Positions 43,854 to 62,058 of a stretch of DNA of 64,000 nucleotides are shown here, in pieces. This DNA is from a virus (taxonomy: Duplodnaviria > Heunggongvirae > Uroviricota > Caudoviricetes): the IMG/VR virus record IMGVR_UViG_3300043436_003321, positions 26,530 to 90,529 of that record, one strand, 5' to 3'. Numbering within the stretch: the first letter of the stretch is position 1; each line of letters opens with the position of its first letter. A model generated the notes under the pieces. That model was given only the letters and a program-made list of their open reading frames with translations. It was not told where the DNA came from and searched no databases. The position numbers and the translations under genes were made by a program.

Positions 43854-43870
43854 TTTGTAAGTTCCTCTGT

Positions 43871-43912
43871 TTTGTTTGGTTACATATACAATATAATCAA
43901 AGTTCTGGCAAT
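43871..43912 (-). promoter_or_regulatory. early promoter (divergent member of the conserved family)
   Basis: Minus strand aaaGGTTGACAttgccagaactttgatTATATTGTATATGTAACC. The -35 box is 43908-43903. Confidence 0.5.
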
Positions 43913-43913
43913 G

Positions 43914-44241
43914 TCAACCTTTATTTTGCATTTTTTTCAAAATATTTTCGACAGTCCAGGTAAACACCGACCACGCCTCTTCGAAGGAAGCATAGCTGCG
44001 ACTAGACAGACCTTCAAGAGCCGTGATGTCAACCACGAACCCATCAAGCACTTGCCCAAATTGGTAGCAGTTCTTACGACAATCCTCATCCTCGTAGAGT
44101 TCGTTAATCAGTGCGAACCCTTTATAGTGATAGACTTCATCAAAGCCGGACAGGTCATGGCGCAGAGTCTTTTCCACAGTCTTAAACTGTGTCTCCTTAC
44201 TTGGGTAAATCGTAATGAACCCATCATCTTCGATATCTGAC
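43914..44241 (-). CDS. hypothetical protein
   Basis: Track ORF 43914..44270. The likely start is ATG 44241 (MSDIEDDG) with RBS GAGG, 1 nt after the upstream stop. Confidence 0.5.
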
Positions 44242-44244
44242 ATC

Positions 44245-44652
44245 TTATACAACCTCGTAGAGCATTTCATTGATGGCTTTTTGGATTGGAAGTTCCTTTT
44301 CGGCCGAATAGTTCAGACCGAAGTGGAAGCAGAAGTAACTCGGGCCGTATTGAAGATCAATATCGCTGAACTCTTCAGCTTCCATAATCCACTTCAGAGC
44401 CTGAACTTCATCTTTGGCGCCAAGGATCATATTACCCTGAATCCGTTGATGCATGGCAATCATAGCCATATTTTCTGCATGACGCTCACGTTCCACGGTT
44501 TCATTGAACTCGCGCATCAGACCATCCCAAATAGCCTGGCGGTCAAAGTCGTTGCTGTTATTCCATTCGGACCAAAAGTATTCACGAGGGCGATAGCCAC
44601 GAGCATCTTTGTGAAGATCAGAAACGATGTTTTCGTCGAAGGTGTGAGTCAT
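44245..44652 (-). CDS. hypothetical protein
   Basis: 135 aa. Preceded by an early promoter and leader ending GGCAACAGAGGAACACATCATG. Confidence 0.55.
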   Translation of the reverse strand: MTHTFDENIVSDLHKDARGYRPREYFWSEWNNSNDFDRQAIWDGLMREFNETVERERHAENMAMIAMHQRIQGNMILGAKDEVQALKWIMEAEEFSDIDLQYGPSYFCFHFGLNYSAEKELPIQKAINEMLYEVV

Positions 44653-44666
44653 GATGTGTTCCTCTG

Positions 44667-44712
44667 TTGCCTACATTTACAATATAAACATTACTTTGGA
44701 AATGTCAACCCC
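44667..44712 (-). promoter_or_regulatory. early promoter, conserved family
   Basis: Minus strand GGGGTTGACAtttccaaagtaatgttTATATTGTAAATGTAGGCAA. The -35 box is 44708-44703. Confidence 0.65.
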
Positions 44713-45012
44713 TTATGCGACATTTTTTTGAAAAAATTTCACGACCATCTTATCCAGATCGGTCAGCGGTTTGACATAGGGAAGACCTTGCCGAGTCAGA
44801 AGATCACCGACACGAGCGAACTCGTTGGCAATCTTGTCATTCGGATAGGTTTGTGCAGCGGTCATCATTTTATCACCAAGAATTTGCATCGGACCCATCG
44901 TATTTCTCCTCAAGGATGGTATATTGGAACCCACTTTTATCACCATGGGCTTTGGCTTCTTCATAAGTATCAAAGTGAACTCGGTAACCGAAGTTATAAA
45001 AGACGCAGGCAA
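44713..45012 (-). CDS. hypothetical protein
   Basis: 99-aa ORF. Start uncertain; internal Met residues are possible. Confidence 0.4.
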   Translation of the reverse strand: MPASFITSVTEFTLILMKKPKPMVIKVGSNIPSLRRNTMGPMQILGDKMMTAAQTYPNDKIANEFARVGDLLTRQGLPYVKPLTDLDKMVVKFFQKNVA

Positions 45013-45018
45013 ACATCA

Positions 45019-45270
45019 TCAGTTCCACCCCATAGCCATACCGACCTCACATTCAGCTTCACGTTTGGCTTGTTCCCACGAAGTAAACGGTCCGGCAGAA
45101 TCTTTATTATCGTCAAGACGACCTTCGGGCGTGTAGACCATCCAGAAGTTACGATCATAGTCAAAGGGGTTGACACTACGGACAATCACAACTTTTTTGA
45201 GAGAGTTAGTAGCAACTGCAATGGTCTCACTCACGGCTTCGAACGTCATCATTGGATTTGTCTCCTTCAT
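45019..45270 (-). CDS. hypothetical protein
   Basis: 83-aa track ORF. The more likely start is MMTFEAV at about 45252, after RBS GAAGGAGA. Confidence 0.45.
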   Translation of the reverse strand: MKETNPMMTFEAVSETIAVATNSLKKVVIVRSVNPFDYDRNFWMVYTPEGRLDDNKDSAGPFTSWEQAKREAECEVGMAMGWN

Positions 45271-45315
45271 TGCCTACATTTACAATATAAACATTACGAG
45301 AACAATGTCAACCCC
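45270..45315 (-). promoter_or_regulatory. early promoter, conserved family
   Basis: GGGGTTGACAttgttctcgtaatgttTATATTGTAAATGTAGGCAA. The -35 box is 45311-45306. Confidence 0.65.
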
Positions 45316-45325
45316 AAAATGCATT

Positions 45326-45490
45326 TTATTCGACTAATTTATCACGAAGTATGTCGAATGTGATCCAGGCGGATCGTTCGAATTCTTCTTGGGAAGCTTC
45401 ACTGAAGTCAAGGCTCATATAATCCATGACCTGCCGAGCAAGCCCTTCATCGACGTTCAACAGCTGTTGAATTTGTTTTACCCAGTACAT
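45326..45490 (-). CDS. small hypothetical protein (54 aa, MYWVKQIQQLL...)
   Basis: Distal part of the 134-aa track ORF. Its N-terminal part overlaps the 79-aa gene out of frame. ATG 45490 is preceded by RBS GAGGAG. Confidence 0.35.
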   Translation of the reverse strand: MYWVKQIQQLLNVDEGLARQVMDYMSLDFSEASQEEFERSAWITFDILRDKLVE

Positions 45491-45500
45491 AGTCAGCTCC

Positions 45501-45740
45501 TCAGTAGGAATATTTGTCAGAAAAGACTGCATTCGGAAAAATTTGTTTGAGCGCCGTGACGATATGAGCATCAACAACAGACATATCCTCATAGGCTTCA
45601 TAACTAATTCCGGAGCGATGAGCAATGGCCCAAGCTTCAGACCCGAGTTTAACGTCAGATAGATCATAACCATTACGACCAAGATAATCTGCAGCCATAA
45701 CGGTCCAACGAGCGATAGTAGCAGAGTCAAATTTAGCCAT
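45501..45740 (-). CDS. hypothetical protein
   Basis: 79 aa. Confidence 0.5.
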   Translation of the reverse strand: MAKFDSATIARWTVMAADYLGRNGYDLSDVKLGSEAWAIAHRSGISYEAYEDMSVVDAHIVTALKQIFPNAVFSDKYSY

Positions 45741-45742
45741 GA

Positions 45743-46108
45743 TTAAGCTGCCTCTCCGATAACTTCAATTTCGTCATTGAACAAATAAAGTTCCTCAAAG
45801 CCGAACGAATCGACCATGAAGAACCGACCATCACGAGCAAAGATATCACCAACCGAAGTCGAGGACATGCGACCGAACTTGTCGACCATCTCTGGAGCGT
45901 TCCAAAGGTTGGTCACCTCGAAAGCAACTTCCAAATCATTGGTGCGAACATCAGCAACAGCCGTAAAGTACCGAAGCATATCCGGGGTGAAGTTTTTAGA
46001 ACCACGGACCATCAACTTACGCTTGGCTTCAATTGCAGGGACCGAAGCACCGGCATTGAAAGCATCAATCTGAGCATTGGACATTTTGATTTGGAAGATG
46101 GTAATCAT
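45743..46108 (-). CDS. hypothetical protein
   Basis: 121 aa, downstream of an early promoter. Confidence 0.5.
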   Translation of the reverse strand: MITIFQIKMSNAQIDAFNAGASVPAIEAKRKLMVRGSKNFTPDMLRYFTAVADVRTNDLEVAFEVTNLWNAPEMVDKFGRMSSTSVGDIFARDGRFFMVDSFGFEELYLFNDEIEVIGEAA

Positions 46109-46122
46109 GAGGACCTCCGTTG

Positions 46123-46168
46123 TTGCCTACATTTACAATATAAACATTCTGAAGGAGATGTCAACCCC
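46123..46168 (-). promoter_or_regulatory. early promoter, conserved family
   Basis: GGGGGTTGACAtctccttcagaatgttTATATTGTAAATGTAGGCAA. The -35 box is 46164-46159. Confidence 0.65.
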
Positions 46169-46189
46169 CTTCAGACATCTTTTTGCTTT

Positions 46190-46468
46190 TTATGCAACTT
46201 TTTTCAGAAGAGTCGGCGAGACTTTCCAGGTGACGCCCAAACCATCGGTCTGCTTTACCTGGATTGTTTTTGAATTGATCTTCATGATGGAACCTTTGAT
46301 GTAACCACGGCGGCCAGCATCAAACTCGACTTTTTCACCGATAACAAACGATACAGCTTTTTCACGCTGCAGGGATTTCTGGCGTTCTTTGATAAGGTTG
46401 ATAATGAGGGTCAGTTCAGACGAGGTGGCGTTACGGATTGCTTTAGCTACTTCACGATCAATAATCAT
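46190..46468 (-). CDS. hypothetical protein (possible small beta-barrel/SH3-like)
   Basis: 92 aa. A GEKVEFDAGRRGYIKGSIMKINSKTIQVK pattern. Confidence 0.45.
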   Translation of the reverse strand: MIIDREVAKAIRNATSSELTLIINLIKERQKSLQREKAVSFVIGEKVEFDAGRRGYIKGSIMKINSKTIQVKQTDGLGVTWKVSPTLLKKVA

Positions 46469-46483
46469 AGGTGTTTCCTTTTG

Positions 46484-46529
46484 TTGCCTACATATACAAT
46501 ATAAACATTACTAAGCAAATGTCAACCCC
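46484..46529 (-). promoter_or_regulatory. early promoter, conserved family
   Basis: GGGGGTTGACAtttgcttagtaatgttTATATTGTATATGTAGGCAA. The -35 box is 46525-46520. Confidence 0.65.
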
Positions 46530-46560
46530 CAAAATGCAATTATTGCAAATCTTTTTGCAC

Positions 46561-47121
46561 TTAGGCGGCTGTCACCTTGAACCATTCTGGGACTTGACGC
46601 TTCGACCAAGCCATCTTGAACCGAGTCTGCTTTGTCTGGTAGAACTCACGATACGATCGAACTGGATCATTCGGATGCATGCACTCTGGATTTGCTTTCA
46701 TTGCAAGTGGCTGCTGAGTGAGATAGCCGACCGGGATGTTACGTGGCGGCGTTTTCAGCTTTTCACGAAGTAGGGTATCGGTCGAATGGACCTTGCCATA
46801 ACGATACGTGTACTCGTCGCAGAGAGCCGCAAAGTGAATCCAATGCCACGTATAGTTATTATTGGATTGCATAGTCCAGACTGTGCAAGGATGCGCAGTA
46901 TGAACTGCTTTGTAGAGAACGTCCTCACGATCGTCAGGGAGAGTCCAGTGTCGAACAGACGTCTTGCCAGATTTAGATGGTGCGCGTTTGAGGTGACCGT
47001 CGAGCATACGATGAGCGGTTGAGAGCATTTGAGCTGACTCGACGATCATCTTAACGACATGCTTGTCGCACTGAAGCTGTGCTGCGACAACTGGGTCCTT
47101 GTCAAGGATGAAAAGATTCAT
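46561..47121 (-). CDS. conserved hypothetical protein
   Basis: 186 aa. N-terminus MNLFILDKDPVVAAQLQCDKHVVKMIVESAQML looks like a conserved phage family I cannot name with confidence. Confidence 0.5.
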   Translation of the reverse strand: MNLFILDKDPVVAAQLQCDKHVVKMIVESAQMLSTAHRMLDGHLKRAPSKSGKTSVRHWTLPDDREDVLYKAVHTAHPCTVWTMQSNNNYTWHWIHFAALCDEYTYRYGKVHSTDTLLREKLKTPPRNIPVGYLTQQPLAMKANPECMHPNDPVRSYREFYQTKQTRFKMAWSKRQVPEWFKVTAA

Positions 47122-47163
47122 AATATATCCTATTTGTAATGGGTTTGGCCAACGCCAAGGATG

Positions 47164-47208
47164 CCTAACTGAACTGATTTTATATGGTTACACACGTATG
47201 TCAATCGT
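47164..47208 (-). promoter_or_regulatory. early promoter (simple TTGACA-N16-TAAAAT type)
   Basis: Minus strand aaacgaTTGACAtacgtgtgtaaccataTAAAATcag. The -35 box is 47204-47199. Confidence 0.55.
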
Positions 47209-47326
47209 TTTCGGCATGTACAAGAAAATCCTTCCTTGTGCATCTCGACTTGGGCTTCTCTGAATTTCCAGATCGTTCCAAGCATATAATTGTTTTCAGT
47301 ATTGATGTGGCGATTCTGCATATAAT

Positions 47327-47515
47327 TCATTCGAATTCACACACCAAATCTTCATGATGATAGCAGTCGGCAATATATTCAGGATCATAGATTGACTGGA
47401 GATATTGCTGATGGCGGGCAAAGTCAGCCTCAGCTTCAAGATGATCTTGCAACTCACGATCCATGGTACTACATGCCGAGAGAATGGCAAGAGCGAACAG
47501 CATAGCATATTTCAT
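47327..47515 (-). CDS. small lipoprotein (about 62 aa)
   Basis: MKYAMLFALAILSAC has a lipobox ILSAC. RBS GGAG. Downstream of an early promoter. Confidence 0.5.
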   Translation of the reverse strand: MKYAMLFALAILSACSTMDRELQDHLEAEADFARHQQYLQSIYDPEYIADCYHHEDLVCEFE

Positions 47516-47534
47516 AGTACACTCCAAGAAAGAT

Positions 47535-47578
47535 TTTACATGTACAATATAATAAAAGGGAGTTGAAATGTCAACCCC
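47535..47578 (-). promoter_or_regulatory. early promoter, conserved family (partial leader block)
   Basis: GGGGGTTGACAtttcaactcccttttattATATTGTACATGTAAAATC. The -35 box is 47574-47569. Confidence 0.55.
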
Positions 47579-48247
47579 CTAAATGCCTTTTTCTGAAAAA
47601 TATTGCTTTCGCAGTGAAATGAAGTCATGAATGTGACTGTCTCGATCCTCTATGAATACTTGAGGTGAGTCATCATCGACCATCACGACTGTCACCAATT
47701 GTTTGATGGGTTTCTTTGTTCTCTCCTCAAACGCCACGGCATAGAATGATTCCTGCATGAAGTAGTTTTTGATCCATTCTTTCTTCTTAGGCTTGCGAGA
47801 TGTTTTAAAGTCAATGATTGACAACTTGCCTTGCCATTCTCCGATCAAATCGACTCGGCCGGCCACCTTAATATAGTCCGAATACAGTGGTGCTTCCTGG
47901 AACCAGATATTATCCAGGTTCTCATCTAGCAAGGATTTGATCTGATTAAATGTGAACATATTTGCCGGCATCTTGCCTCGAGCATAATGTGGCATATTAT
48001 TGATGTACTCTTCGGCGATTAGGTGAACCTCAGTCCCACGAGTCCCAGCTTGAGTAAGAACACGTTTGGCTTCTTCCTCACCGACACGCTTCTTCCAATC
48101 TTCAATGCCAGACTTTTCCTGGATGGAAAGAACTGTGGTAACCGATGGGTATTTTTTATTAGGTTCTGGGTAGTAAAAGCGGCCATTCTCGGTTGTATCG
48201 CAGTGAATGTCCTTGAGCACAATGCCGTGCTGCACATGATGAAACAT
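47579..48247 (-). CDS. PD-(D/E)XK family nuclease (RecB/Cas4/YqaJ-like fold)
   Basis: 222 aa. GRVDLIGEWQGKLSIIDFKTSRK matches the D...(D/E)xK catalytic signature. Confidence 0.55.
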   Translation of the reverse strand: MFHHVQHGIVLKDIHCDTTENGRFYYPEPNKKYPSVTTVLSIQEKSGIEDWKKRVGEEEAKRVLTQAGTRGTEVHLIAEEYINNMPHYARGKMPANMFTFNQIKSLLDENLDNIWFQEAPLYSDYIKVAGRVDLIGEWQGKLSIIDFKTSRKPKKKEWIKNYFMQESFYAVAFEERTKKPIKQLVTVVMVDDDSPQVFIEDRDSHIHDFISLRKQYFSEKGI

Positions 48248-48256
48248 TATATAAAC

Positions 48257-48559
48257 TTATCCTATGATTACAGTTGCTAATCCAGATGTAATGCTACCAT
48301 CATCACACGCATCACCTTTTCTGGCTGCACGAGCACCAGAAATAAACACAGTTTCACTGGCGGCACTGATTGGCGCTGTATGAGATACACATGAATCGCC
48401 TACTAGTATTTCGTGACTTACTGTTAGATCGCCAAGTCGTGCAATTAACTGACCACCAGCGAATACTGTGCTGTTACCTGTAGGCGCATCCAATGTGGTA
48501 GTCGCATCGCATGCATGCCCGGTGGCTACGGTATCAGTTTCTCGTGCAACTTCAGGCAT
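48257..48559 (-). CDS. PAAR-repeat protein (gp5.4-like spike tip)
   Basis: 100 aa, with repeated G..GH.C / ARxGD / HxxxxC motifs typical of PAAR domains. Confidence 0.8.
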   Translation of the reverse strand: MPEVARETDTVATGHACDATTTLDAPTGNSTVFAGGQLIARLGDLTVSHEILVGDSCVSHTAPISAASETVFISGARAARKGDACDDGSITSGLATVIIG

Positions 48560-48652
48560 TATCGAATTACTTTTAACTCGGGATTTGCCGCCACGTACTC
48601 ATTAAATTGCTCTTGAGTGAATTGCAAGACAAATCTAGTCCCATCAGCAGCT

Positions 48653-48838
48653 TCAAATACTCTCAGTCTCCGTGCCATCTTTGACCTCTTTTATTGATAC
48701 AGAACCATCATCGCCAACTAACCATTCAATTAGCGTATCCTCATGCCATCCCATCTGATTCAGAAGTTCGGCTGGAAACTCAATGAATAACTGTCCGTCC
48801 TTATCCTCTTGGACCTCAACTGTATATTTATCTTTCAT
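48653..48838 (-). CDS. small AbrB/MazE-like (swapped-hairpin) DNA-binding protein candidate
   Basis: 61 aa. GQLFIEFPAELLNQMGWHEDTLIEWLVGDDGSVSIKEV resembles the SpoVT-AbrB/MazE pattern. Immediately downstream of phoH. Confidence 0.35.
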   Translation of the reverse strand: MKDKYTVEVQEDKDGQLFIEFPAELLNQMGWHEDTLIEWLVGDDGSVSIKEVKDGTETESI

Positions 48839-48839
48839 C

Positions 48840-49595
48840 TCATAATCCTAGGTTATCTCGAGCGATGATGTATGATTTCACCAAATCGCTTCTTACAATA
48901 TCATCAACAAAGAATTCTACGAATTCGAACTCTTTCATTGTATTAATGATTCGCATAAAGTCAGCAACACCTGACTGTTCATTGAATCGTTTGCTTGTTA
49001 GATCATCCTGTTTAATGTCACCGGCAAAGATGATCTTACAGTTCTGACCTACACGTGTCATAATAGTATGAAGTTCACCATCATTCATGTTTTGCATTTC
49101 ATCGACGACAATCACACAATCATCAAATGTCACACCACGTAGGAACGAAGTGGATCTAAATTCAACCATATTTCTTTGTTTTAAAATTGAATATGCATCA
49201 CCACGGTCGAAAAGTTTATCACAGATAGGTGGATATGGTTCTTCATATACGGCTTCCTTCTGTGCCTTGGTCCCCGGCATAAATCCTTGATCGCGTGTAG
49301 CGACAGTAGAGCGAACAATCCAGACCTTTTCATATGGACTATTCTTGGCAAAAATGTCACTCAAGGCAAAATAGAGTGCCAGAAATGTTTTACCCGTGCC
49401 GGCAATGCCGTGAAGCATTAGATTATAGTTATCAGCCCAAGCTTTAAAAGCCAATCTTTGATTCTCGGTCATAGGGCCAATATCACGTGATATATCAAAC
49501 GATGTTGATAGAACGTTTCCGGTCTCTAATACGCCTTGCTGCTTTAAAACCCGTTTCTGTCTCTTTGTTAATCTTTGTTGTCTTTGGACAGTCAT
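48840..49595 (-). CDS. phoH: PhoH-like ATPase (phosphate-starvation-inducible protein family; common marine-phage AMG)
   Basis: 251 aa. Walker A GIAGTGKTF, Walker B VIVVDEMQN, and the PhoH motif FAGDIKQDDL. Confidence 0.9.
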   Translation of the reverse strand: MTVQRQQRLTKRQKRVLKQQGVLETGNVLSTSFDISRDIGPMTENQRLAFKAWADNYNLMLHGIAGTGKTFLALYFALSDIFAKNSPYEKVWIVRSTVATRDQGFMPGTKAQKEAVYEEPYPPICDKLFDRGDAYSILKQRNMVEFRSTSFLRGVTFDDCVIVVDEMQNMNDGELHTIMTRVGQNCKIIFAGDIKQDDLTSKRFNEQSGVADFMRIINTMKEFEFVEFFVDDIVRSDLVKSYIIARDNLGL

Positions 49596-49603
49596 GATTA
49601 CCC

Positions 49604-49840
49604 TTAATTTCTAGTTTGAATGGTGCTTTTCCAATGAGCAGCTTTTGCTTTCTTGAGCACATCGTTAAATCCATCATCAATTCGTCTAACGCCAAGACGG
49701 ACTGAATCGCCAAATGCCACTACCGGTGGTACTTGTATGTAATCTGGATTTTCTTCTAGAAATTGTTCTCGGGAGGCAAGAGATAGGATCGTAGTAACTT
49801 CCTCACCAGTCTCTTTGTGTCTAAACGTATAGGTCGGCAT
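49604..49840 (-). CDS. hypothetical protein
   Basis: 78 aa. RBS AAGGAG. Confidence 0.5.
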   Translation of the reverse strand: MPTYTFRHKETGEEVTTILSLASREQFLEENPDYIQVPPVVAFGDSVRLGVRRIDDGFNDVLKKAKAAHWKSTIQTRN

Positions 49841-49855
49841 TTCATTCTCCTTAAC

Positions 49856-49881
49856 AAAAAAGCGGCCCGTAGCCGCTTTTT
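49856..49881. terminator. bidirectional intrinsic terminator / stabilising hairpin
   Basis: AAAAAA-GCGGC-CCGTA-GCCGC-TTTTT at 49856-49881, 36 nt downstream of the HAD gene stop. Confidence 0.6.
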
Positions 49882-49911
49882 CACTTCTACCATGAAGATA
49901 TTTATATGGAG

Positions 49912-50502
49912 TTATGCCATCATCTCATAAATTTCACGCCAGTTGTTGACGCGAGGAATATGTTTGATTACAGGATGTTCATAATCCTCGTTGTGATCAT
50001 GACGGATCAGAACTGAATGTAGACCTGCCTGAAAACCAGCCAAAGCATTTTCCTTCTTATCCTCAACCCAGAGACAACCACTGTCCTTATATTCGGCCAG
50101 GGCTTCATCCTTATCAGCGCCGGTATCAAGGCACAGGATACGTTCAAAGGTTGTAGTACCGAACAGAGCTTCGATGTTCTTGACACGAGCCTTTTGAGCA
50201 AATGGATCAAGCGACAATGAGGTAATACAGTGGAAAATGTAACCATATTCCTCATGAAGCTTTTTCACATATTTTACAGCATCACGGAGAGGCGGCAAAT
50301 ATTCGATGTTGGCACTTTCGTTGAACATTTTGACAAAGTTTTTAGCTTCAGCCCGTGAGATGCCGTAACATTCACCAAGGTCGTATACATCATCACGGAT
50401 CTTTGTATGTCCGTGCCGTTCCATCCAACGGTCAAAGGAATACATCCAATCAACCAAAACACCATCACAGTCAACAAGGATAAGTTTATCACTCAATTTC
50501 AT
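49912..50502 (-). CDS. HAD-superfamily hydrolase (5'-nucleotidase/phosphatase-like)
   Basis: 196 aa. LILVDCDGVLVDW matches HAD motif I (DxDG). Confidence 0.65.
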   Translation of the reverse strand: MKLSDKLILVDCDGVLVDWMYSFDRWMERHGHTKIRDDVYDLGECYGISRAEAKNFVKMFNESANIEYLPPLRDAVKYVKKLHEEYGYIFHCITSLSLDPFAQKARVKNIEALFGTTTFERILCLDTGADKDEALAEYKDSGCLWVEDKKENALAGFQAGLHSVLIRHDHNEDYEHPVIKHIPRVNNWREIYEMMA

Positions 50503-50503
50503 A

Positions 50504-50887
50504 TTATGCAGCCTTCAGATTCATTTCAATTTCTTCAAAGCGGTTATCAGCCGCAGAACGGCTAGCGTAGAACCAGGCATCGCCGTCGAATAGGTAGAGG
50601 TAGTCAGCGCCGGCATGATCATAACCATTGGTCATATAATCTTCAACTGATTCAAATTCTACAACCGGTTGATTTTTATGGGCCGAATTGGCAATAGAGT
50701 CGTGAATGTTCGGTTCAAGCGCCGACAAATAACCAACAAGAGAAACAGAGACCGCCTCAATAGCACTATTGTAATGGTCAATAAGAGTACGACCGACACC
50801 TTCAAGGTAGCCGTCGTAGTGGACATAGGTGGCTTCAACCGAGCCGTCTTCCAAGTTATAGAAACCGATCATTGCATGAGTACCCAT
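50504..50887 (-). CDS. hypothetical protein
   Basis: 127 aa, downstream of an early promoter. Confidence 0.5.
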   Translation of the reverse strand: MGTHAMIGFYNLEDGSVEATYVHYDGYLEGVGRTLIDHYNSAIEAVSVSLVGYLSALEPNIHDSIANSAHKNQPVVEFESVEDYMTNGYDHAGADYLYLFDGDAWFYASRSAADNRFEEIEMNLKAA

Positions 50888-50902
50888 AGGTGTTTCCTTT
50901 CA

Positions 50903-51196: not shown

Positions 51197-51197
51197 A

Positions 51198-51368: not shown

Positions 51369-51369
51369 T

Positions 51370-51537: not shown

Positions 51538-51559
51538 TTGTAATCCAGTATTGTGTTAC

Positions 51560-51598
51560 ATTATTAGTATACATTGATCACAAACGAATGTCAACAAA
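51560..51598 (-). promoter_or_regulatory. early promoter (TTGACA-N17-TATACT) whose -35 overlaps the U-tract of the upstream terminator
   Basis: Minus strand GCGCTCTTTTTTGTTGACAttcgtttgtgatcaatgTATACTaat. The -35 box is 51594-51589 and the -10 box 51571-51566. Confidence 0.55.
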
Positions 51599-51618
51599 AA
51601 AGAGCGCCGAAGCGCTCT
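51595..51618 (-). terminator. intrinsic terminator after the SPFH gene
   Basis: AGAGCGC-TTCG-GCGCTCT stem-loop (51601-51618) followed by TTTTTT on the minus strand. Also A-rich upstream and T-rich downstream on the plus strand (bidirectional potential). Confidence 0.7.
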
Positions 51619-51639
51619 TTTCTATTTTTTTATAAGGAA

Positions 51640-55840: not shown

Positions 55841-55857
55841 GTTATCCTCACTGTGAT

Positions 55858-55897
55858 TTAATAGTATACTATCACACTTCTATACTATGTCAACAGA
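55858..55897 (-). promoter_or_regulatory. early promoter (TTGACA-N16-TAGTAT)
   Basis: Minus strand aagtctgTTGACAtagtatagaagtgtgaTAGTATact. The -35 box is 55893-55888. Confidence 0.5.
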
Positions 55898-56814
55898 CTT
55901 TTTAGAAGTGTTTCCCATTCACGCGAACGAGTATCCCATGCATACACAGAGTCAGTCAAAGATTTTTTAACTGCAGCATTATTTACAAAACCTGTATGCT
56001 CACTATACTCACGACGAAGGGTAATTGCATTATGAAGCTGATTATAGAATCTTTGAGCATGGACATTTGGATTTTCATGGTATTCGTACATCATGGTGAG
56101 ATTCATAGATGTCTCAGGTAGGGCAGCTAACGATGAATGCACACACGTAAGTCCAGCGCTCATTGCTTCAATGAGAACAAGGCATGAAGTCTCCTGCCAT
56201 GTTGATGGATATGCAAGAATATGATTCCGCTTAAGCTCTTCGCGGATCTTATCATTCGATACAGATTTGCTGTAGTTAATCTGAGGATGATCTTCAAGTT
56301 TTTTAAACAAATCCTGGTATTGTACATCACGTTCTGGCCAAGCATATAGATCAAATGAGCTAAATACGTTGAGTTCAATATCAGAAAATTGTTTGGTAAG
56401 ATGATCGAATACCGGATATAGAATATCCAAGCCCCGATGAGGGGTTGAGTAATACATCAACCGAATCTTGTCCATAGGTTTGGCATGTTCTTCGATTGGT
56501 GTAATAGCATTTCTGAGCACAACACCCGCCGAGGGTGGAACCCCAAGCCAATCTTGAAATTGTTGTTTCTGCCAATGACTCACAAACACAAGTTTATCAA
56601 ATTGCCGCCAACCCTCATCCTTAAAATAAGAATACATTGGGTCCTGAGCCAAATCGTGAATAACAAGAATATTTTTCTTGGTGACATCAATACCACTATT
56701 GCGCGAATGAATGATATTAAAGTGGCTTAAAAGATCTTGAGGCAGAGAGTTAATCCTCCCTGCCATCAATTCAGTCCCACCTCTAGCAATTAAATTAGTC
56801 AAAAGCGACTCCAT
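55885..56814 (-). CDS. GT-B fold glycosyltransferase (GT1/GT4-like)
   Basis: 309 aa. The C-terminal STWQETSCLVLIEAMSAGLTCV matches the E-x7-E-type donor-binding motif. Confidence 0.65.
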   Translation of the reverse strand: MESLLTNLIARGGTELMAGRINSLPQDLLSHFNIIHSRNSGIDVTKKNILVIHDLAQDPMYSYFKDEGWRQFDKLVFVSHWQKQQFQDWLGVPPSAGVVLRNAITPIEEHAKPMDKIRLMYYSTPHRGLDILYPVFDHLTKQFSDIELNVFSSFDLYAWPERDVQYQDLFKKLEDHPQINYSKSVSNDKIREELKRNHILAYPSTWQETSCLVLIEAMSAGLTCVHSSLAALPETSMNLTMMYEYHENPNVHAQRFYNQLHNAITLRREYSEHTGFVNNAAVKKSLTDSVYAWDTRSREWETLLKSLLT

Positions 56815-57052
56815 TTACAGTTTTAAGACTATCCCAACGGAAACTACGCCAACCTTGATTGATCAAATCAAACACAGCCATGACATCAGGATTCTGAGCC
56901 TTTTTCTGAACAGCCTCCTCAAGATCAATTTGAGTAGGAAGTTTGTCAGCTCTCAATGTAGCAGTCATAACTCGGACCGATCCATCCTTCTTGATGAATT
57001 CAAGATCAACGGTCTCATTATGCAAAAGTTCAAGTACTTCAGATTTTCCCAT
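56795..57052 (-). CDS. hypothetical protein (86 aa from MGKSEVLELL...)
   Basis: Internal start of the 123-aa track ORF with strong RBS GGAGGA. The longer form overlaps the glutaredoxin gene. Confidence 0.45.
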   Translation of the reverse strand: MGKSEVLELLHNETVDLEFIKKDGSVRVMTATLRADKLPTQIDLEEAVQKKAQNPDVMAVFDLINQGWRSFRWDSLKTVNGVAFD

Positions 57053-57299
57053 CACCAAATCCTCCAATGGTATTTTCAACTTCGGCGGCAAAATCAGTAT
57101 AGCCGCCAATATAACGATCGTCCCACCAAATCTGAGGTAGGGTTTTAACATCAGGCTTGAGAGCACTCAATTCAAGAATAAATTGCACATTGGTATCTAC
57201 ATTACGATACTCAACTCTATGCCCCAAGGTATCGGCCAAATCTTTAGCCTTTGTGCACCATCCACAATTATTTTTAGAGTAAATGGTAATCATAATCAA
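57039..57299 (-). CDS. glutaredoxin/NrdC-like thiol-disulfide oxidoreductase
   Basis: 86 aa. TIYSKNNCGWCTKAK has the CxxC active site. The C-terminal IGGYTDF is typical of the glutaredoxin fold. Confidence 0.7.
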   Translation of the reverse strand: MIMITIYSKNNCGWCTKAKDLADTLGHRVEYRNVDTNVQFILELSALKPDVKTLPQIWWDDRYIGGYTDFAAEVENTIGGFGDGKI

Positions 57300-57565
57300 T
57301 CCTCATCAAAATTGATTTTCTTCTTCCGATCAATGCCTTTATAGCGCTCGTACCAAGCTTTGCCATTCACACGAACCTTGATAAACCGCTTATTGGTTTC
57401 ATTCTTGTTCGGATTCTCCATGGTAAATACGACATCTTTACCGTTTCGCAGAGCAGCAATTTTATTGAGCATACGCCGACCAGAATCTGTGTTGCGAGTG
57501 CTAATTGAACTTTGACGTTCCCCTTTTGAGGTGTAATGTTTGCCCGAACCTTTACCTTTAGCCAT
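57296..57565 (-). CDS. small basic protein (possible nucleic-acid binding)
   Basis: 89 aa, Lys/Arg-rich. Confidence 0.45.
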   Translation of the reverse strand: MAKGKGSGKHYTSKGERQSSISTRNTDSGRRMLNKIAALRNGKDVVFTMENPNKNETNKRFIKVRVNGKAWYERYKGIDRKKKINFDED

Positions 57566-57728
57566 TATTTAGTCTCCCATTTAAAATTTTCATTAATAGT
57601 ATGATCATGATCTTCTATACATTTAATAATATGATTTAGAAGTGTAGCACCATTCACTCTAGAATATATATCGTAGCCATGGTTTGTCAACAAATATTTT
57701 AATTCGGCGCGAAGTTGATTACTTATCA

Positions 57729-58073
57729 TTATAAAGAAAAGCCCAGTTCTTTCCAGTTACGAACGTATTGGATCTTCTTCTCACGAGTCCAATCAATCAG
57801 ATAGTCATTATCAGTGTCAAACTTCTCGAGCATCTGCTCTTCCGTAAGAATCTCTGTGTCAATAATACTCTCACCAACGTGCTTCTGAGAGAATTCCTTT
57901 ATCTCGTTACAGGTAACGCAATCATTAGCCCATTCAATCTCATGGCCTTCGACAGGAACCTCAGTGTTCAGTTGTTGCAGCTCATCTACGGGAATGCAGT
58001 AACGCATACGGTAAGACGAGATAGCAGTTACGATTACATATTTGGTCATTTTACTCTCCTTCAATCTCGGCAA
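57729..58073 (-). CDS. hypothetical protein
   Basis: 114 aa. Likely start MTKYVIV about 24 nt inside the ORF. Confidence 0.5.
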   Translation of the reverse strand: MPRLKESKMTKYVIVTAISSYRMRYCIPVDELQQLNTEVPVEGHEIEWANDCVTCNEIKEFSQKHVGESIIDTEILTEEQMLEKFDTDNDYLIDWTREKKIQYVRNWKELGFSL

Positions 58074-58088
58074 TGATGCCCGCGGGCG

Positions 58089-58466
58089 TCACGCTGGTTC
58101 AGCTTTGACCACCGCAGCCCCCCCCATCGCCTTCGCCAGCTTGTCTTCTGCGGCAATAAGTTGACGGCACAACTCGGTTAGATCGCCCTGCAACTCCTCC
58201 GCATAAGCCTCGGCCTCCTTGGCGTCAGCACGGGCGGCTTCATTAATCGCAACAAGTTGCTCGAGTTGCTCGGTCAGGGCTTCGATGCGGTCGGCCATCG
58301 CCAAAATGAGCAACCCGGTTGAATAAAAAGGCGGCGTTGGAGGGCCATTTTCGCTCCACTCCCTAGCCAGCTTCACCAGTTCTTCGTCAGTCATTTTACT
58401 TCCTTTGCAATACAGTATCCTCGCAAGGTGTGAACAGGTTCGAGTTGTGTAATAGCAGCTTTGCAA
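58089..58466 (-). CDS. hypothetical coiled-coil protein in a GC-rich patch
   Basis: Track ORF of 125 aa. Probable start MTDEELVKLAREW. Local GC clearly higher than the genome background. Confidence 0.4.
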   Translation of the reverse strand: MQSCYYTTRTCSHLARILYCKGSKMTDEELVKLAREWSENGPPTPPFYSTGLLILAMADRIEALTEQLEQLVAINEAARADAKEAEAYAEELQGDLTELCRQLIAAEDKLAKAMGGAAVVKAEPA

Positions 58467-58560
58467 GAGTCATAATTAGGAAACTCCTGCATTGCTACAC
58501 CACCTTCTTGATAACCATTAAATACTAGAACAAGAATATATGCTCCTGCCGTGTTAATCA

Positions 58561-59004
58561 TCAAAAGTCCTCCTCACCTTGGTAGACGTTAAACACAAAG
58601 ATGCCAGCATCACGCCACATGCGAACCACACGAGGACGATCGTCAAACACCATGTCTGGCTTTTTACCGTAGTCAGAGATGATGTCGTCAAGGATTTCAC
58701 GCTTTACGATATCGTCACTGCGGAAGTCATCTGCGGGTCGCATGTAGAGTTTTTCGTATTCATAAAACCCATTGCTCTGTAGCCACTTTTCAGTAGCAGA
58801 GCGACTACGCTCATTCCGCCCACTCGCAAGAATGATAGTGTTAAATGCAGACAGCGAGCGGAATGCTTCTGCAACAGGCTCATTCACTTTATCATTCGGA
58901 ATGCTAGCATCAAACGCAGCCCAGTTCTTAGGCTTGCTACGAACATAATCCAAACGATGCTCGATGTTAGCGAGCGTTCCGTCAATATCAAATACGATCA
59001 GCAT
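58561..59004 (-). CDS. HAD-family phosphatase (polynucleotide 3'-phosphatase-like)
   Basis: 147 aa. The N-terminal LIVFDIDGTLA matches HAD motif I. Confidence 0.65.
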   Translation of the reverse strand: MLIVFDIDGTLANIEHRLDYVRSKPKNWAAFDASIPNDKVNEPVAEAFRSLSAFNTIILASGRNERSRSATEKWLQSNGFYEYEKLYMRPADDFRSDDIVKREILDDIISDYGKKPDMVFDDRPRVVRMWRDAGIFVFNVYQGEEDF

Positions 59005-59353
59005 TTTTAATCCTCAGATAGTTGTTCAGCAAGCCTTCGATGTTTGCTTTGCCGATAGGGTTTTGCGAGTGGACGTAGAAGTCAAAGTTGTCTGGAAGTG
59101 GGTAGTGTTTATCATTCATATCCCAGTCAACAATATGTTTAGCGATATCGTGACCGGTGGGTTGATCTTGACCAAGATCATGATCAAATGAAATATATGC
59201 CGGCATTCCTCTCGTCCCAACAGCTATAACAACGTCATAGCGAGTGCGGCAGATCACCCACTTTTCATTACGATACTTCTCGCGGACCTGCCAAGGTGCC
59301 CAAGTGACATCCTCGAGGTTACGTTCGTCATCAAGAAACAAGTTCCAGGTCAT
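58988..59353 (-). CDS. conserved hypothetical protein
   Basis: 121 aa. Motifs NLFLDDERN and ISFDHDLG look like a conserved family I cannot name. Confidence 0.45.
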   Translation of the reverse strand: MTWNLFLDDERNLEDVTWAPWQVREKYRNEKWVICRTRYDVVIAVGTRGMPAYISFDHDLGQDQPTGHDIAKHIVDWDMNDKHYPLPDNFDFYVHSQNPIGKANIEGLLNNYLRIKNADRI

Positions 59354-59547
59354 TATTGCGTTTCCTTTACACGAATTTCTTTTTCAGCGATCATATACCA
59401 ATCAGGAGCAAAGTCTTCGGTATTATACGAGTTGATCTTGTCACGGTACTCTGCGGCTTCTCGATAAGTATCAAAAAGTGCATACTCGCGCTTCTGACCC
59501 CAACCACGTTCAGACTCAATTGTGCAGACTTCGTATTGAATTTTCAT
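59353..59547 (-). CDS. hypothetical protein
   Basis: 64 aa. Confidence 0.45.
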   Translation of the reverse strand: MKIQYEVCTIESERGWGQKREYALFDTYREAAEYRDKINSYNTEDFAPDWYMIAEKEIRVKETQ

Positions 59548-59548
59548 C

Positions 59549-59710
59549 TCAGATCACCTTTGCGATTTCAATAAAAACATAGTACTCTTTGTCGAGACCT
59601 TCGACAATCTTCTCAGCCTCTTCTTGCGTGTCTGCCCGAAACATGTCGTAAGACTCGAGTCGATCGCCGTAACGATCGAACTCTTCGTAGTGTGCATAGA
59701 CCTTGTACAT
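59549..59710 (-). CDS. small acidic hypothetical protein (53 aa, MYKVYAHYEEFDRYGDRLESYDMF...)
   Basis: Not in the track. RBS GGAG. Possibly paralogous to the adjacent 61-aa gene (both MxxxxxAxYEg...). Confidence 0.3.
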   Translation of the reverse strand: MYKVYAHYEEFDRYGDRLESYDMFRADTQEEAEKIVEGLDKEYYVFIEIAKVI

Positions 59711-59720
59711 CTAATTCTCC

Positions 59721-59906
59721 TTAGAAGCGATATTCTGCAGGCGCATCAACTGCGACTTCACGAACAACGAACTGCTCATAAGATGGCAGATCACGTTCAG
59801 AATCAACCAGATACTGTTGCGAAGCAGCTTCTGCGAGTTCGCGAGTCGAGTATACGCCGAGAAGGGTTTCACCTTCGTAGTCAGCAGCAACAGTGAGTAC
59901 AAACAT
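59721..59906 (-). CDS. small acidic hypothetical protein
   Basis: 61 aa, downstream of an early promoter. Confidence 0.45.
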   Translation of the reverse strand: MFVLTVAADYEGETLLGVYSTRELAEAASQQYLVDSERDLPSYEQFVVREVAVDAPAEYRF

Positions 59907-59923
59907 TGGATGTTCCTTTCGTT

Positions 59924-59967
59924 CCTTACATATACAATATAAACACTACTAAGGAAATGTCAACCCC
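59924..59967 (-). promoter_or_regulatory. early promoter, conserved family
   Basis: GGGGGTTGACAtttccttagtagtgttTATATTGTATATGTAAGGAAC. The -35 box is 59963-59958. Confidence 0.65.
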
Positions 59968-60153
59968 CATTTTTAAAAAATTAAATCTATATCGCTCATC
60001 GAAAATCTTCTATAAGGTTTTTTACAAATAAAAACAAATGTGTACCGGTGCCAAGCCCGAGAGCCATTGAAACAATAGGTTGACTAATGCCATCGGCCAA
60101 ATTGGTATATATTGCAAAACCACCGATAACACTAAAGATACCATATACTATAC

Positions 60154-60420
60154 TCATTCTTCAATATCCTCAAAAATTTTATTAAAAGTAATTTCACCAT
60201 ATTCCCCACGGCCAGTCATGCCGAGTTCATATAGCCGAGCCATCATCTTTGCATCGTGTTCAGTCTTGATGTACATCGACGTATCAAGATCGCCGTGCAA
60301 CATACCTACTTCGGTTCTAAAGAAGTCAACAACATACATTGTTTTGGTATAGGAGCTGTCAAAGTCGCCGTAGCAGACATCAACATCAACTTCTTCTGGA
60401 GTGACGATCGCGATAGCCAT
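60154..60420 (-). CDS. hypothetical protein
   Basis: 88 aa. Confidence 0.5.
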   Translation of the reverse strand: MAIAIVTPEEVDVDVCYGDFDSSYTKTMYVVDFFRTEVGMLHGDLDTSMYIKTEHDAKMMARLYELGMTGRGEYGEITFNKIFEDIEE

Positions 60421-60435
60421 GATGTAACCTCTGTT

Positions 60436-60479
60436 TGTTATAGTTATAATATAAACACTGGCTGCAAAATGTCAACCCC
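60436..60479 (-). promoter_or_regulatory. early promoter, conserved family (partial leader block)
   Basis: aGGGGTTGACAttttgcagccagtgttTATATTATAACTATAAC. The -35 box is 60475-60470. Confidence 0.55.
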
Positions 60480-60489
60480 TTTTTTAAAT

Positions 60490-60819
60490 TTAGTTGATTA
60501 AATTGCTCCAAGTCATGAGTTTGTTGCGCTTTACATGTATTCTAGCACTCAACTCTTTGTCAGTCAGGATCCCATGCTCAACCATCAATTCGATCATACA
60601 CAGAACATCGCCGGCTTCTTCGATCAACAAATCTCTATACTTGTCGTTCTGGATTTCCTCGAGTGTCGTGTACTTACGCATAACTTTCATGCATACTTGT
60701 GTCAGTTCGCCACATTCTTCTGATGTAATTGCCATAAGTTGTTGTATGGCATTCAGTGGTGATTCTAGTTCTTCGTTACTTACCATGTTCTTGCCTTTTT
60801 CTAACGCTACAATAGTCAA
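60490..60819 (-). CDS. mazG: MazG-like nucleotide pyrophosphohydrolase
   Basis: 109 aa. EECGELTQV ... EEAGDVLCMI matches the MazG EExxE...E..D signature. Likely start MVSNEEL at about 60786. Confidence 0.75.
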   Translation of the reverse strand: MTIVALEKGKNMVSNEELESPLNAIQQLMAITSEECGELTQVCMKVMRKYTTLEEIQNDKYRDLLIEEAGDVLCMIELMVEHGILTDKELSARIHVKRNKLMTWSNLIN

Positions 60820-60976
60820 CAGTCCAGAGAGAGTACGTTAATCCTGCTAGTAGACCGTATAAAATATTCACCCAAAAGTTATCACCAGTTATACTGACTA
60901 TACAAAAAGCAACTATTAAGTCTGCTGTTAGGATAGCAACTACCCAATCATACCAACGTATCATTGTCAATCCCAC
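60776..60976 (-). CDS. small membrane protein
   Basis: 66 aa with two hydrophobic helices. Confidence 0.4.
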   Translation of the reverse strand: MGLTMIRWYDWVVAILTADLIVAFCIVSITGDNFWVNILYGLLAGLTYSLWTVDYCSVRKRQEHGK

Positions 60977-61626
60977 AAAGAAAAGTAGTAGCGGCCAAAA
61001 AGTCTGTGGCCATTCTTGATGCGGTCGTAGTGAGCTTTCTTACCTTCTTCGTCCACCTTGAACGTATGGTTAGGCCCATATTCCATTCTAGAGTATTTGT
61101 CGTCTTCTTTCACAAACTTCCAATCCACTTCACCAGAGTAGAATTGATCGTCACCAGTGTCGTCCTTTGCGCACTGCTCGAAGGCCCAGATCATTTCGTC
61201 AAGAACCCAGTCCCAACGTGCTTCGTGGTTATCATCAATATCCCATTCATCCTTTTTTGGTGGTGCAGCAGTGCTACGAAGATGCTCAGGAACGTCCTCG
61301 TCGTCTACATATGGTGCACCGTGCTTGTTCTCTTTCAGCTTCAATAGCAAAGGATGAACAAGCATTGCAATCGTATGGTCTGCACCCCAAACATCGTATC
61401 CGTCAACGTGGATCTTAACTTTGCGCTGAGCTTTGTCAAGATACTTATTAATGGTTTTGTTGTAGAGAGTTTGAAGTGCACCCTCGAGTTTGTAGGTAAA
61501 CTTGTCCATCCAAGTATACTTGTTTTCATCCATATCCCACCAAGTCTCAGCGTACTTTCTATCCATCCAACGATCATGGACTTTAGAAACCCAACGGTAG
61601 CGGTAAGGTCCTAGGTATACTTTCAT
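60967..61626 (-). CDS. hypothetical protein
   Basis: 219 aa, Trp/Asp-rich. Preceded by a promoter. Confidence 0.5.
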   Translation of the reverse strand: MKVYLGPYRYRWVSKVHDRWMDRKYAETWWDMDENKYTWMDKFTYKLEGALQTLYNKTINKYLDKAQRKVKIHVDGYDVWGADHTIAMLVHPLLLKLKENKHGAPYVDDEDVPEHLRSTAAPPKKDEWDIDDNHEARWDWVLDEMIWAFEQCAKDDTGDDQFYSGEVDWKFVKEDDKYSRMEYGPNHTFKVDEEGKKAHYDRIKNGHRLFGRYYFSLWD

Positions 61627-61646
61627 TTTCTTTCCTTAATAATTTT

Positions 61647-61688
61647 TATAGAATTACTATAATCGGTTCAGAAGCAAATGTCAACTAT
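61647..61688 (-). promoter_or_regulatory. early promoter (TTGACA-N17-TATAGT)
   Basis: Minus strand TTGACAtttgcttctgaaccgatTATAGTaattc. The -35 box is 61684-61679. Confidence 0.5.
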
Positions 61689-62058
61689 AATGAATCAGGT
61701 TTATCAGTTTGAAGTCTTTACCTTCGAGAAGATAAACATGATCTGGATACAACCGAGCAAACTGTTCTTTGTATTCTAACTCAAGGTTCAAAAAATTACT
61801 GGTGTCAATTTCTTGATAGTCGTTCATGTCATCACAGTAACGGAAGTCACCAGAGTCGTAGATTTTGTGGCCAAGAATTATGTAATTACCCATCATACCA
61901 TCGATGACGGCTTCGACCTGTCGATCTGCTGGTTGTGGTTTACCCCATCCAAATTCATCTAAAAGTGCTTCTTCGATTTCTTCATATGCTTCGTAGAAAG
62001 CATTATCCCAATCTAATTTTACGCCATAGACGGTATATACATGTGTGTTGATACCCAT
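61681..62058 (-). CDS. hypothetical protein
   Basis: 125 aa. Confidence 0.5.
   Translation of the reverse strand: MGINTHVYTVYGVKLDWDNAFYEAYEEIEEALLDEFGWGKPQPADRQVEAVIDGMMGNYIILGHKIYDSGDFRYCDDMNDYQEIDTSNFLNLELEYKEQFARLYPDHVYLLEGKDFKLINLIHYS

Follow-up and report, generated by a model that had tools for sequence, protein, structure and literature searches.

The stretch of DNA analysed here (the window) comprises 64,000 nucleotides (nt) of the IMG/VR virus record IMGVR_UViG_3300043436_003321 (positions 26,530 to 90,529 of that record), and the subject of this report is a family of nine closely similar sequence blocks of about 46 bp, each of which precedes one or more small genes on its minus strand. 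Judged by its gene content, the source is a marine T4-type myophage of the Melnitz/HTVC008M-like kind. A 677-amino-acid (aa) CHASE2/cyclase protein shows 48% identity to Methylophilales phage Melnitz, which is the closest cultured relative, and 35% to Pelagibacter phage HTVC008M. The window also encodes a T4 RNase H domain, PhoH, an exonuclease, curli-type CsgG/CsgF proteins and a two-piece transfer-messenger RNA (tmRNA), all of which are, like the cyclase protein, features known for the Melnitz/pelagimyophage group (PMC9004378, PMC7029224). Structural genes of T4 type (baseplate, tail-fibre and tail) occupy 1-27 kb, promoters are confined to the non-structural part at 36-62 kb, and the nine blocks are found only at 43.9-60.5 kb. 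The non-structural part of pelagimyophage genomes has been called hypervariable (PMC7029224). Among 80 related viral contigs, the genes for RNase H, NT5C, PhoH, the exonuclease and a 186-aa “DNA-binding” protein are syntenic, and seven of the 11 genes at 43.9-46.5 kb have no homologue. Megablast with the region 43.8-51 kb gave no match in GenBank phages, and a distant search of GenBank phages returned short gene-level matches only.

A scan for TTGACA followed after 15-19 nt by TAnnnT finds exactly 15 minus-strand sites between 43860 and 61690, the number that an earlier reading of the same letters (the first-pass annotation) had given as a minimum. The first T of TTGACA lies at 61684, 61439, 60475, 59963, 57690, 55893, 51594, 50944, 47574, 47204, 46525, 46164, 45311, 44708 and 43917. 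The stricter pattern TTGACA-N16-18-TAWAWT yields 12 matches, every one of them on the minus strand, compared with an expected 0.45. Searches with longer pieces of the block gave seven minus-strand matches to the 20-mer TATATTGTAAATGTAGGCAA at up to three mismatches (exact in three copies, with one mismatch in two more) against an expectation of 0, and 12 matches to GGGGTTGACA at up to one mismatch against an expectation of 2.7. When a two-block weight matrix was run over both strands of the window and over shuffled sequences, exactly nine members of the extended family were recovered at 42-63 bits, the next site scoring 7.6 and the shuffles at most 0.2. All nine (60475, 59963, 50944, 47574, 46525, 46164, 45311, 44708 and 43917) have TTGACA and TATATT at a distance of 16 or 17 nt, thus agreeing with the promoter consensus at 11 of 12 positions. 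They are a real and well-delimited family of predicted early-promoter cassettes.

The first-pass count of about nine extended blocks is therefore correct. Its description of them as almost invariant holds for six core copies but not for 60475, 47574 and 43917, which diverge downstream of the -10, and its placement of all sites between genes applies to about 12-13 of the 15, because 61439 falls within a 219-aa open reading frame (ORF), 47204 within a conserved 66-aa ORF and 57690 within a doubtful 54-aa ORF. Five of the remaining sites (61684, 57690, 55893, 51594 and 47204) are ordinary sigma-70-like sites that lack the extended block.

The blocks, which we designate by the first T of their -35, are all on the minus strand and head unrelated sets of genes. 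P60475 (60434-60479, 50.7 bits) is a divergent copy with the structure GGGGTTGACAT-N9-AGTGTTTATATTATAACTATAACAAA and heads genes of 88 and 53 aa. P59963 (59922-59967, 59.1 bits) heads an operon of about eight small genes that extends from 59906 to 57729. P50944 (50903-50948, 58.0 bits), whose GGGG and -35 lie within the 3' end of an upstream 88-aa ORF, heads the genes for a 127-aa protein, an NT5C-like protein, PhoH and a PD-(D/E)XK exonuclease. P47574 (47532-47578, 42.5 bits) has a 17-nt spacer and heads a gene for a 62-aa lipoprotein-like protein. P46525 (46484-46529, 62.2 bits) precedes a 92-aa ORFan, and its 5' untranslated region (5'UTR) is identical through the ATG to that of P50944, despite the unrelated genes behind them. 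The three top-scoring copies, at 63.0 bits each, are P46164 (46123-46168; genes of 121, 79 and 54 aa), P45311 (45270-45315; genes of 77, 48 and 61 aa) and P44708 (44667-44712; genes of 135 and 109 aa), in the last of which the upstream stop codon adjoins the GGGG. P43917 (43876-43921, 48.7 bits) is again divergent (AAGG...AACCAA), has the TGA stop of the upstream ORF within its TTGACA, and heads a DUF932 gene. The stop-to-ATG gaps of 42-92 nt are taken up essentially by the block alone. The ORFs behind the blocks show no mutual relationship, and a tandem duplication of whole cassettes can be ruled out because the downstream ORFs are not paralogous.

Each block consists of an A/T tract, GGGG, TTGACAT, a spacer of 16-17 nt, TATATT, GTAAAT and GTAGGCAA. 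The consensus of the upstream half reads aaaa(a/t)tgca, tttt, GGGG, TTGACAT, nine variable nt, AGTAATGTT and TATATT; that of the downstream half reads TATATT, GTAAAT, GTAGGCAA, (c/t)(a/g), an A-rich stretch, GGAG or AAGGA, and the ATG. Conservation within the block is position-specific. In the six core copies, the promoter-distal (5') part of the spacer varies in nine of nine columns compared with six of 37 elsewhere (Fisher p = 4.5e-6), and pairwise mismatch there amounts to 60%, which is near random, against 7% and 16% in the flanking segments. Apart from the variable spacer, no difference exists among the three neighbouring copies at 44.7-46.2 kb. The identity of the copies is therefore not merely that of young duplicated DNA, and the freely varying half of the spacer is, if the promoter assignment is right, exactly the part that the polymerase does not read. 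The block is locked to the -10 without an indel in eight of the nine copies; in as many, the distance from -10 to ATG is 27-31 nt and a purine (G) preceded by T sits 7 nt after TATATT.

The predicted start of transcription is the G of GTAGG, 7 nt after TATATT. With such a start, GTAAAT would be discriminator DNA and only about eight conserved bases (GUAGGCAA) would be transcribed, so that the “conserved transcribed leader” of the first-pass annotation shrinks to these eight, its GTAAAT portion being untranscribed. The predicted 5'UTRs, counted from the same position, are 21-30 nt long, the conserved block stops 14-22 nt upstream of the AUG, and the strongest conservation lies upstream of +1. 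All nine leaders, folded from the start to +47 with dinucleotide shuffles as control, are predicted to fold worse than their shuffles (z +0.25 to +1.81), and look as if they had been selected for openness.

Two other promoter classes of T4-type phages were considered and rejected. As regards a T4-type late promoter, none of the nine window-wide matches to TATAAATA is in a block, and only P50944 has the shorter TATAAAT. As regards a MotA box, GCTTAG does occur in the spacer, but by inspection it lies about 7 nt from the -10, not roughly 12 nt as in T4 middle promoters, and this reading was rejected for that reason. One late-promoter motif TATAAATA (49899-49906), followed by a terminator-like hairpin AAAAAGCGGCTACGGGCCGCTTTTTT, was noted in the gap 49841-49911 on the minus strand, in the middle of the P50944 operon.

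Hairpins involve the -35 of several of these promoters. The -35 of P46164 lies within the hairpin TCTGAAGGGGGTTGACATCTCCTTCAGA (46175-46148; 12 pairs, -17.5 kcal/mol, z -4.35) and that of P47574 in the terminator-like hairpin AGGGGGTTGACATTTCAACTCCCT, which is followed by a T-rich tail (47580-47557; 10 pairs, -14.5 kcal/mol, z -3.4), while the hairpin of P50944 is moderate (-11.4 kcal/mol). Among the sites lacking the block, P55893 has a hairpin across its -35 (-12.6 kcal/mol, z -2.9), and a terminator of -21.5 kcal/mol accompanies 51594. In many relatives, the -35 is situated in the loop of a hairpin formed by a G-run and a C-run and followed by a T-run (-14 to -23 kcal/mol), as in the arrangement G7-TTGACA-C7-T6 of the L037 type (related loci carry L numbers throughout). 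This element is a predicted terminator built into the promoter.

These properties match almost point by point those of the early-promoter stem-loop elements (PeSLs) known from the phage groups RB49/phi1, T4/PST and KVP40/nt-1 (Arbiol et al. 2010, PMC2839356; Comeau et al. 2014, PMC4122927). The parts that define a PeSL are an A/T tract containing the stop codon of the upstream gene, a near-perfect TTGACA-N17-TATAAT, a G-run/C-run stem-loop with possible overlap of the -35, a Shine-Dalgarno sequence (SD) and an ATG; their consensus is lineage-specific, they are dense in hyperplastic regions beside ORFans and indels, neighbouring copies recombine to give mini-circles or deletions, and both promoter and terminator activity have been shown experimentally (PMC2839356, PMC4122927). 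The blocks share with them the A/T tract, the near-perfect sigma-70 -35 and -10 and the SD with ATG, and they likewise cluster in a hyperplastic region of a T4-type genome, flank ORFans, differ in consensus from lineage to lineage and lie at junctions of indels, replacements and rearrangements, the relatives being too distant for the reconstruction of single events. They differ in that the stem-loop is degenerate in six to seven of the nine copies, although strong in relatives, in that block identity is unusually high and reaches through the discriminator to about +8, and in their carrier, a member of the marine Melnitz/pelagimyophage group. We consider it probable that the nine blocks are strong sigma-70 early-promoter cassettes of the PeSL type and not a new kind of RNA operator. 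That the sites are early sigma-70-type promoters, as the first-pass annotation had it, is well supported by their consensus hexamers, their strand and position before a Shine-Dalgarno sequence and ATG, their limitation to the non-structural half and the occurrence of the same architecture in many related phages.

In such a cassette, the host sigma-70 RNA polymerase would read the block right after infection and initiate at the G located 7 nt past the -10. An A/T-rich, UP-like tract would be followed by the G-run, as the 5' arm of a hairpin with the -35 in its loop, by TTGACAT, by a 16-17 bp spacer with a fixed promoter-proximal half, by TATATT, by an A/T-rich discriminator and by the G start with some eight fixed bases, and each cassette would drive one to eight small genes through short, open leaders. 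With the UP-like tract, the -35, positions -20 to -13, the -10, the discriminator, the start context and the first bases all fixed, the promoter would be very strong, and purifying selection would act on those positions needed for polymerase contact, open-complex formation and escape; we infer such selection because the constraint is position-specific and persists in diverged relatives. The hairpins may insulate the cassettes transcriptionally. Homologous exchange across the ~46-bp repeats, within and between phages, would insert, delete and move block-plus-gene units and homogenise the promoter cores. The assignments of promoters, start sites and terminators are all predictions made from sequence.

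Comparison with related phages bears on the last of these steps. The closest distinct relative, L227, is 81-98% identical in nucleotide sequence within shared segments. It lacks the 125-aa ORF together with P61684, and has a P61684-like -35 and spacer before a different gene; its orthologue of the gene at 59906 is 94% identical and has another promoter core, homology beginning between -10 and +1; and its homology to the window stops exactly at the 51594 terminator/-35 junction. In L001, P46525 and the 92-aa ORF are missing from the interval that separates the DNA-binding-protein gene from the 121-aa gene homologue, and a block is retained directly after the exonuclease gene, in the same position as P47574. 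Between the DNA-binding-protein gene and the 135-aa gene, L004 has one cassette compared with three in the window. L222 has a block in the style of the window, at 82-87% identity to the copies there, and the gene behind it is homologous to the 77-aa gene with only 53% aa identity; DNA-level similarity between L222 and the window is restricted to that block and a 46-nt hairpin element described below. In L206 and L222, the P45311-style block and the homologue of the 77-aa gene adjoin the DNA polymerase region. Gene order between the copies thus varies among related phages, whole block-plus-ORF units differing in L001 and L004, and the suggestion of the first-pass annotation that the blocks are recombination-prone repeats organising the early region is supported; the synteny breakpoints, gene indels, the swapped promoter core and the relocated block-plus-gene unit in the relatives are all at promoter elements of this kind. 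Given where the breakpoints lie, recombination at the blocks is their probable cause. Variation among the blocks themselves shows all four combinations of A/G at -17 and A/T at -3 (59963, 50944, 46525 and 46164), i.e. the four-gamete condition.

The promoters of the related phages fall into distinct styles. The window and L222 share ...AATGTT-TATATT-GTAWAT-GTAGGCAA; L001, L227 and L228 have ...TTGCT-TATATC-TAWMTA-GTAAGCAA, and the promoter in L227 that is orthologous to P60475 is of this sister style; L004, L041, L068 and L230 have ...AGAATCAG-TATAGT.... In the sub-clade closest to the window, five genomes (window, L001, L222, L227 and L228) together have 12 promoters with GTARG(G)CAA at a fixed distance of 6 nt downstream of TATATY, although the discriminator between them differs; the background of GTARG(G)CAA is 99 occurrences in 1.9 Mb.

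Several observations weigh against the assignment of the blocks to the PeSL type. A convincing hairpin is present in only two to three of the nine blocks, the other six keeping the G-run without a hairpin, so that the “SL” part of the PeSL is degenerate in the window. The final T of a -10 is usually essential, and the sister style lacks it, with TATATC or TATAAC. Base-specific contacts of the polymerase normally end at about +2, so that the retention of GTARG(G)CAA (+1 to +8) in five related genomes despite a varying discriminator, and in particular that of +3 to +8 (RGCAA) across the sub-clade, is, like the C at the last -10 position of the sister style, not clearly accounted for by a promoter. 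As to exchange between blocks, no relative was found that is similar enough to reveal one clean exchange between a pair of them, and the contigs that contain an identical DNA-binding protein show no variation and are uninformative in this respect, as they represent the same phage (99.97-100% identity).

The conservation beyond the start leaves room for explanations in which more than the polymerase reads the block. The segment from -20 to +8 (AGTAATGTT-TATATT-GTAAAT-GTAGGCAA) might be both promoter and DNA target of a phage-encoded or injected factor, such as an early shut-off repressor, an activator or a polymerase modifier, that co-evolves with it. Such co-evolution would explain why related phages have discrete promoter styles, each of them internally consistent, and a DNA target could extend past +2 and be kept better than the flanking gene, as the block is in L222. 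We nevertheless find this doubtful, as no candidate factor was identified, inspection of the block reveals no convincing dyad symmetry, and the styles are interchangeable before the same gene. Moreover, different styles coexist in L227 and the other seven promoters of the window have no block, so that a dedicated factor is not needed for early transcription. A recognition at the level of RNA had been proposed by the first-pass annotation, which saw in the leader a shared post-transcriptional operator. The conserved 5' end of the mRNA (GUARGCAA...) would then be the site of a RegA-like repressor, a determinant of RNase processing or stability, or a translation enhancer. Its rarity in the background, its fixed place after the -10 in the five genomes and the fairly constant distance between -10 and ATG are what such a signal would lead one to expect. 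T4 RegA operators are, like the blocks, a cis element shared by many early mRNAs of a T4-type phage, but they are loosely conserved and overlap the SD and AUG, whereas the block is anchored to the -10, mostly untranscribed and ends well short of the AUG. A search with T4 RegA by tblastn, covering the 64 kb of the genome and 80 related loci, gave a best E value of 2.2 in the window and no homologue in the loci; thus, there is no regA gene in the 64-kb window. An Rfam scan found only the tmRNA and no family in the block region, and the folding of the leaders, which had been recommended as a check, speaks against a conserved structure. A leader signal shared by the entire phage group was rejected on the basis of 77 non-redundant promoters from 21 related loci, as these contain almost no information downstream of the -10. 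With so few conserved bases transcribed and conservation peaking upstream of +1, we regard an RNA operator in these eight bases as unlikely, and the operator as originally proposed is not supported.

Taking DNA and RNA together, there is a small chance that a dedicated co-evolving phage factor recognises the stretch around the start site (the fixed spacer half, the -10 and GTARGCAA at +1 to +8), either on DNA or at the 5' end of the early mRNA. If so, early transcripts would be marked by this factor as “self”, to be shut off at a set time, protected or preferentially translated, and its co-evolution with the stretch would give rise to the discrete promoter styles of the related marine myophages. 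A role of the blocks chiefly as recombination sites or selfish repeats, with an accidental resemblance to promoters, is on the other hand very improbable. Breakpoints and indels do occur at the blocks, and the four-gamete condition within them is in agreement with exchange, but an incidental resemblance would hardly produce a perfect TTGACA and TATATT at 16-17 bp in nine of nine copies, in one orientation and at a fixed position before the SD and ATG, nor confine free variation to the half of the spacer that the polymerase does not read. Strong early-promoter cassettes of the PeSL type, across which genes are exchanged, thus remain the explanation that we favour.

As predicted host sigma-70-dependent early promoters of a phage, the blocks also resemble those of T4. 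T4 early promoters, too, are conserved at more positions than promoters of the host, among them an A/T-rich region upstream and bases near the -10 and the start. They have a GTTTAC -35, whereas the blocks have a perfect TTGACA, and they share a consensus only, whereas the blocks are near-identical over ~46 bp and thus far tighter. The early consensus in T4/PST is TTTACW-N17-TAYWAT (PMC4122927). For Melnitz, 31 sigma-70-type early promoters have been predicted, some of which precede the two-piece tmRNA and the lysin gene; middle promoters were not found (Buchholz et al. 2022, PMC9004378). These are BPROM predictions only, as are the promoters given for the Melnitz/pelagimyophage group in two papers (PMC9004378, PMC7029224), and the Melnitz paper describes no repeated extended block, no terminator-in-promoter arrangement and no cassette shuffling. 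In cyanophage S-PM2, PeSLs were judged to be sparse (PMC4503421).

A search for an exact 24-mer of the block in IMG/VR and JGI metagenome contigs gave no match, and in phage C48C1, which has the best GenBank match to the DNA-binding protein (65% identity), the 24.5 kb inspected contain no promoter array of this sort. The design TTGACA-N16-TATATTRTAWATGTA, i.e. TATATT-RTAWAT-GTA, is present in at least 120 metagenome contigs and 15 viral contigs, compared with 1 and 0 for two permuted controls, and 134 of these 135 loci (L086-L220) show no homology to early proteins of the window. This gives only a hint that the arrangement may be a generally favoured strong-promoter design in these phages, because several of the matches are copies from few phage families and the pattern TTGACA-N16-TATATT-RTAWAT-GTA was derived from this very window; recurrence of the -10/discriminator/start design shows neither common descent nor function. 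One recurrent family among these loci has the sequence ...CAACATGTTATATTATAAATGTACAACAAAYGGAGGAAA-ATG.

Apart from the blocks, the minus strand carries several further predicted promoters. P61684 (61656-61684) is a generic sigma-70-like site, TTGACA-17-TATAGT, before the 219-aa gene; P57690 (57663-57690) has TTGACA-16-TATATT and lies in or next to the doubtful 54-aa ORF; P55893 (55864-55893) precedes a 390-aa gene and is the one with the hairpin across its -35. At 51566-51621, an intrinsic terminator GAGCGCTTCGGCGCTC with a T-run is followed by P51594 (TTGACA-17-TATACT). P47204 (47177-47204, TTGACA-16-TAAAAT) is inside the 66-aa ORF, ahead of the gene for the 186-aa “DNA binding protein”. Two more are outside the region 43860-61690, and both had been singled out by the first-pass annotation, with good reason, as sharing the -35 hexamer. 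P36927 (36899-36927, TTGACA-17-TATAAT) heads a gene of the Hydrolase_2/SleB type, and a promoter at 36149-36176 (TTGACATTT-N13-TATATA, then TAACTAGTAA), a diverged relative of the block, places TTGACATTTGCTCAACATGGTTTATATA (36176-36149) directly upstream of the permuted tmRNA. The latter (35809-36195, minus strand), a two-piece tmRNA of alphaproteobacterial type, specifies the tag ANDNFAPQAYALAA and has a sigma-70-like promoter of its own; within the ARAGORN call for it, a small ORF resembling a secreted protein starts at 35832.

An intergenic element of 46 nt with two hairpins, TCGGGTGGTTACGTAATAAACCCGCGTGGAGCCATGGTTAGCTCCAC, occupies 35387-35432 on the minus strand and is followed by a T-run in the window. 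It is kept in three other loci (L001 19330-19375, L002 11912-11957 and L222 2210-2255) and has no Rfam match. The copy in L222 is in another genomic context, and its second stem is altered in a compensatory manner (GTGGAGC/GCTCCAC to GGGAGGC/GCCTCCC).

The SleB-type cell-wall hydrolase is part of a cluster at 36369-41862 (minus strand), together with CsgF-like and CsgG-like curli secretion proteins, a FecR-domain protein and the 677-aa protein with CHASE2 and guanylate/adenylate cyclase domains. The CsgF/CsgG-FecR-cyclase-SleB cluster also occurs in pelagimyophages (PMC7029224) and in Melnitz. PHROGs lists the widely conserved 186-aa protein (46561-47121, minus strand) as “DNA binding protein”. 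Of its close homologues, which number more than 1,500, a few match Pfam PF03013, the family of pyrimidine-dimer excision enzymes (T4 endonuclease V-like), and a homologue in an Aeromonas phage is annotated as pyrimidine dimer DNA glycosylase/endonuclease V. On account of these matches and this annotation, the protein may be a DNA-repair glycosylase instead of a regulator. A 100-aa protein of the early region (48257-48559, minus strand) has a weak PAAR-motif match. A 120-aa protein (63239-63601, minus strand) recurs without any sequence difference in 130 index blocks of the assembly collection, on contigs up to the 0.2-1 Mb size class; the L227 homologue of the neighbouring 163-aa protein (62243-62734, minus strand) has a Pfam match to Tad3, presumably an anti-defence family. 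The gene for a PstS-like phosphate-binding protein (PBP_like_2) at 34306-35271 and its counterpart at L227 12302-13267 are 86% identical. The L227 copy directly follows the 219-aa gene, a displacement of about 26 kb relative to the window. An internal tandem repeat is indicated in the 1836-aa tail-fibre gene by three successive segments (1869-2237), each of about 110-130 nt, that match one and the same segment of L001 at 74-77% identity.

The present analysis provides a predicted map of early transcription (promoters, operons and terminators) for an uncultured phage related to the Melnitz/pelagimyophage group, which is abundant in the sea, and the block itself is a candidate for a strong promoter in marine Proteobacteria. 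If the blocks are what we believe them to be, the PeSL idea would extend to this group: small accessory genes could be inserted, deleted and moved with portable promoter/terminator cassettes without disturbing their neighbours, and the shuffling of such cassettes would offer a mechanism for the “hypervariable” early region of these phages.

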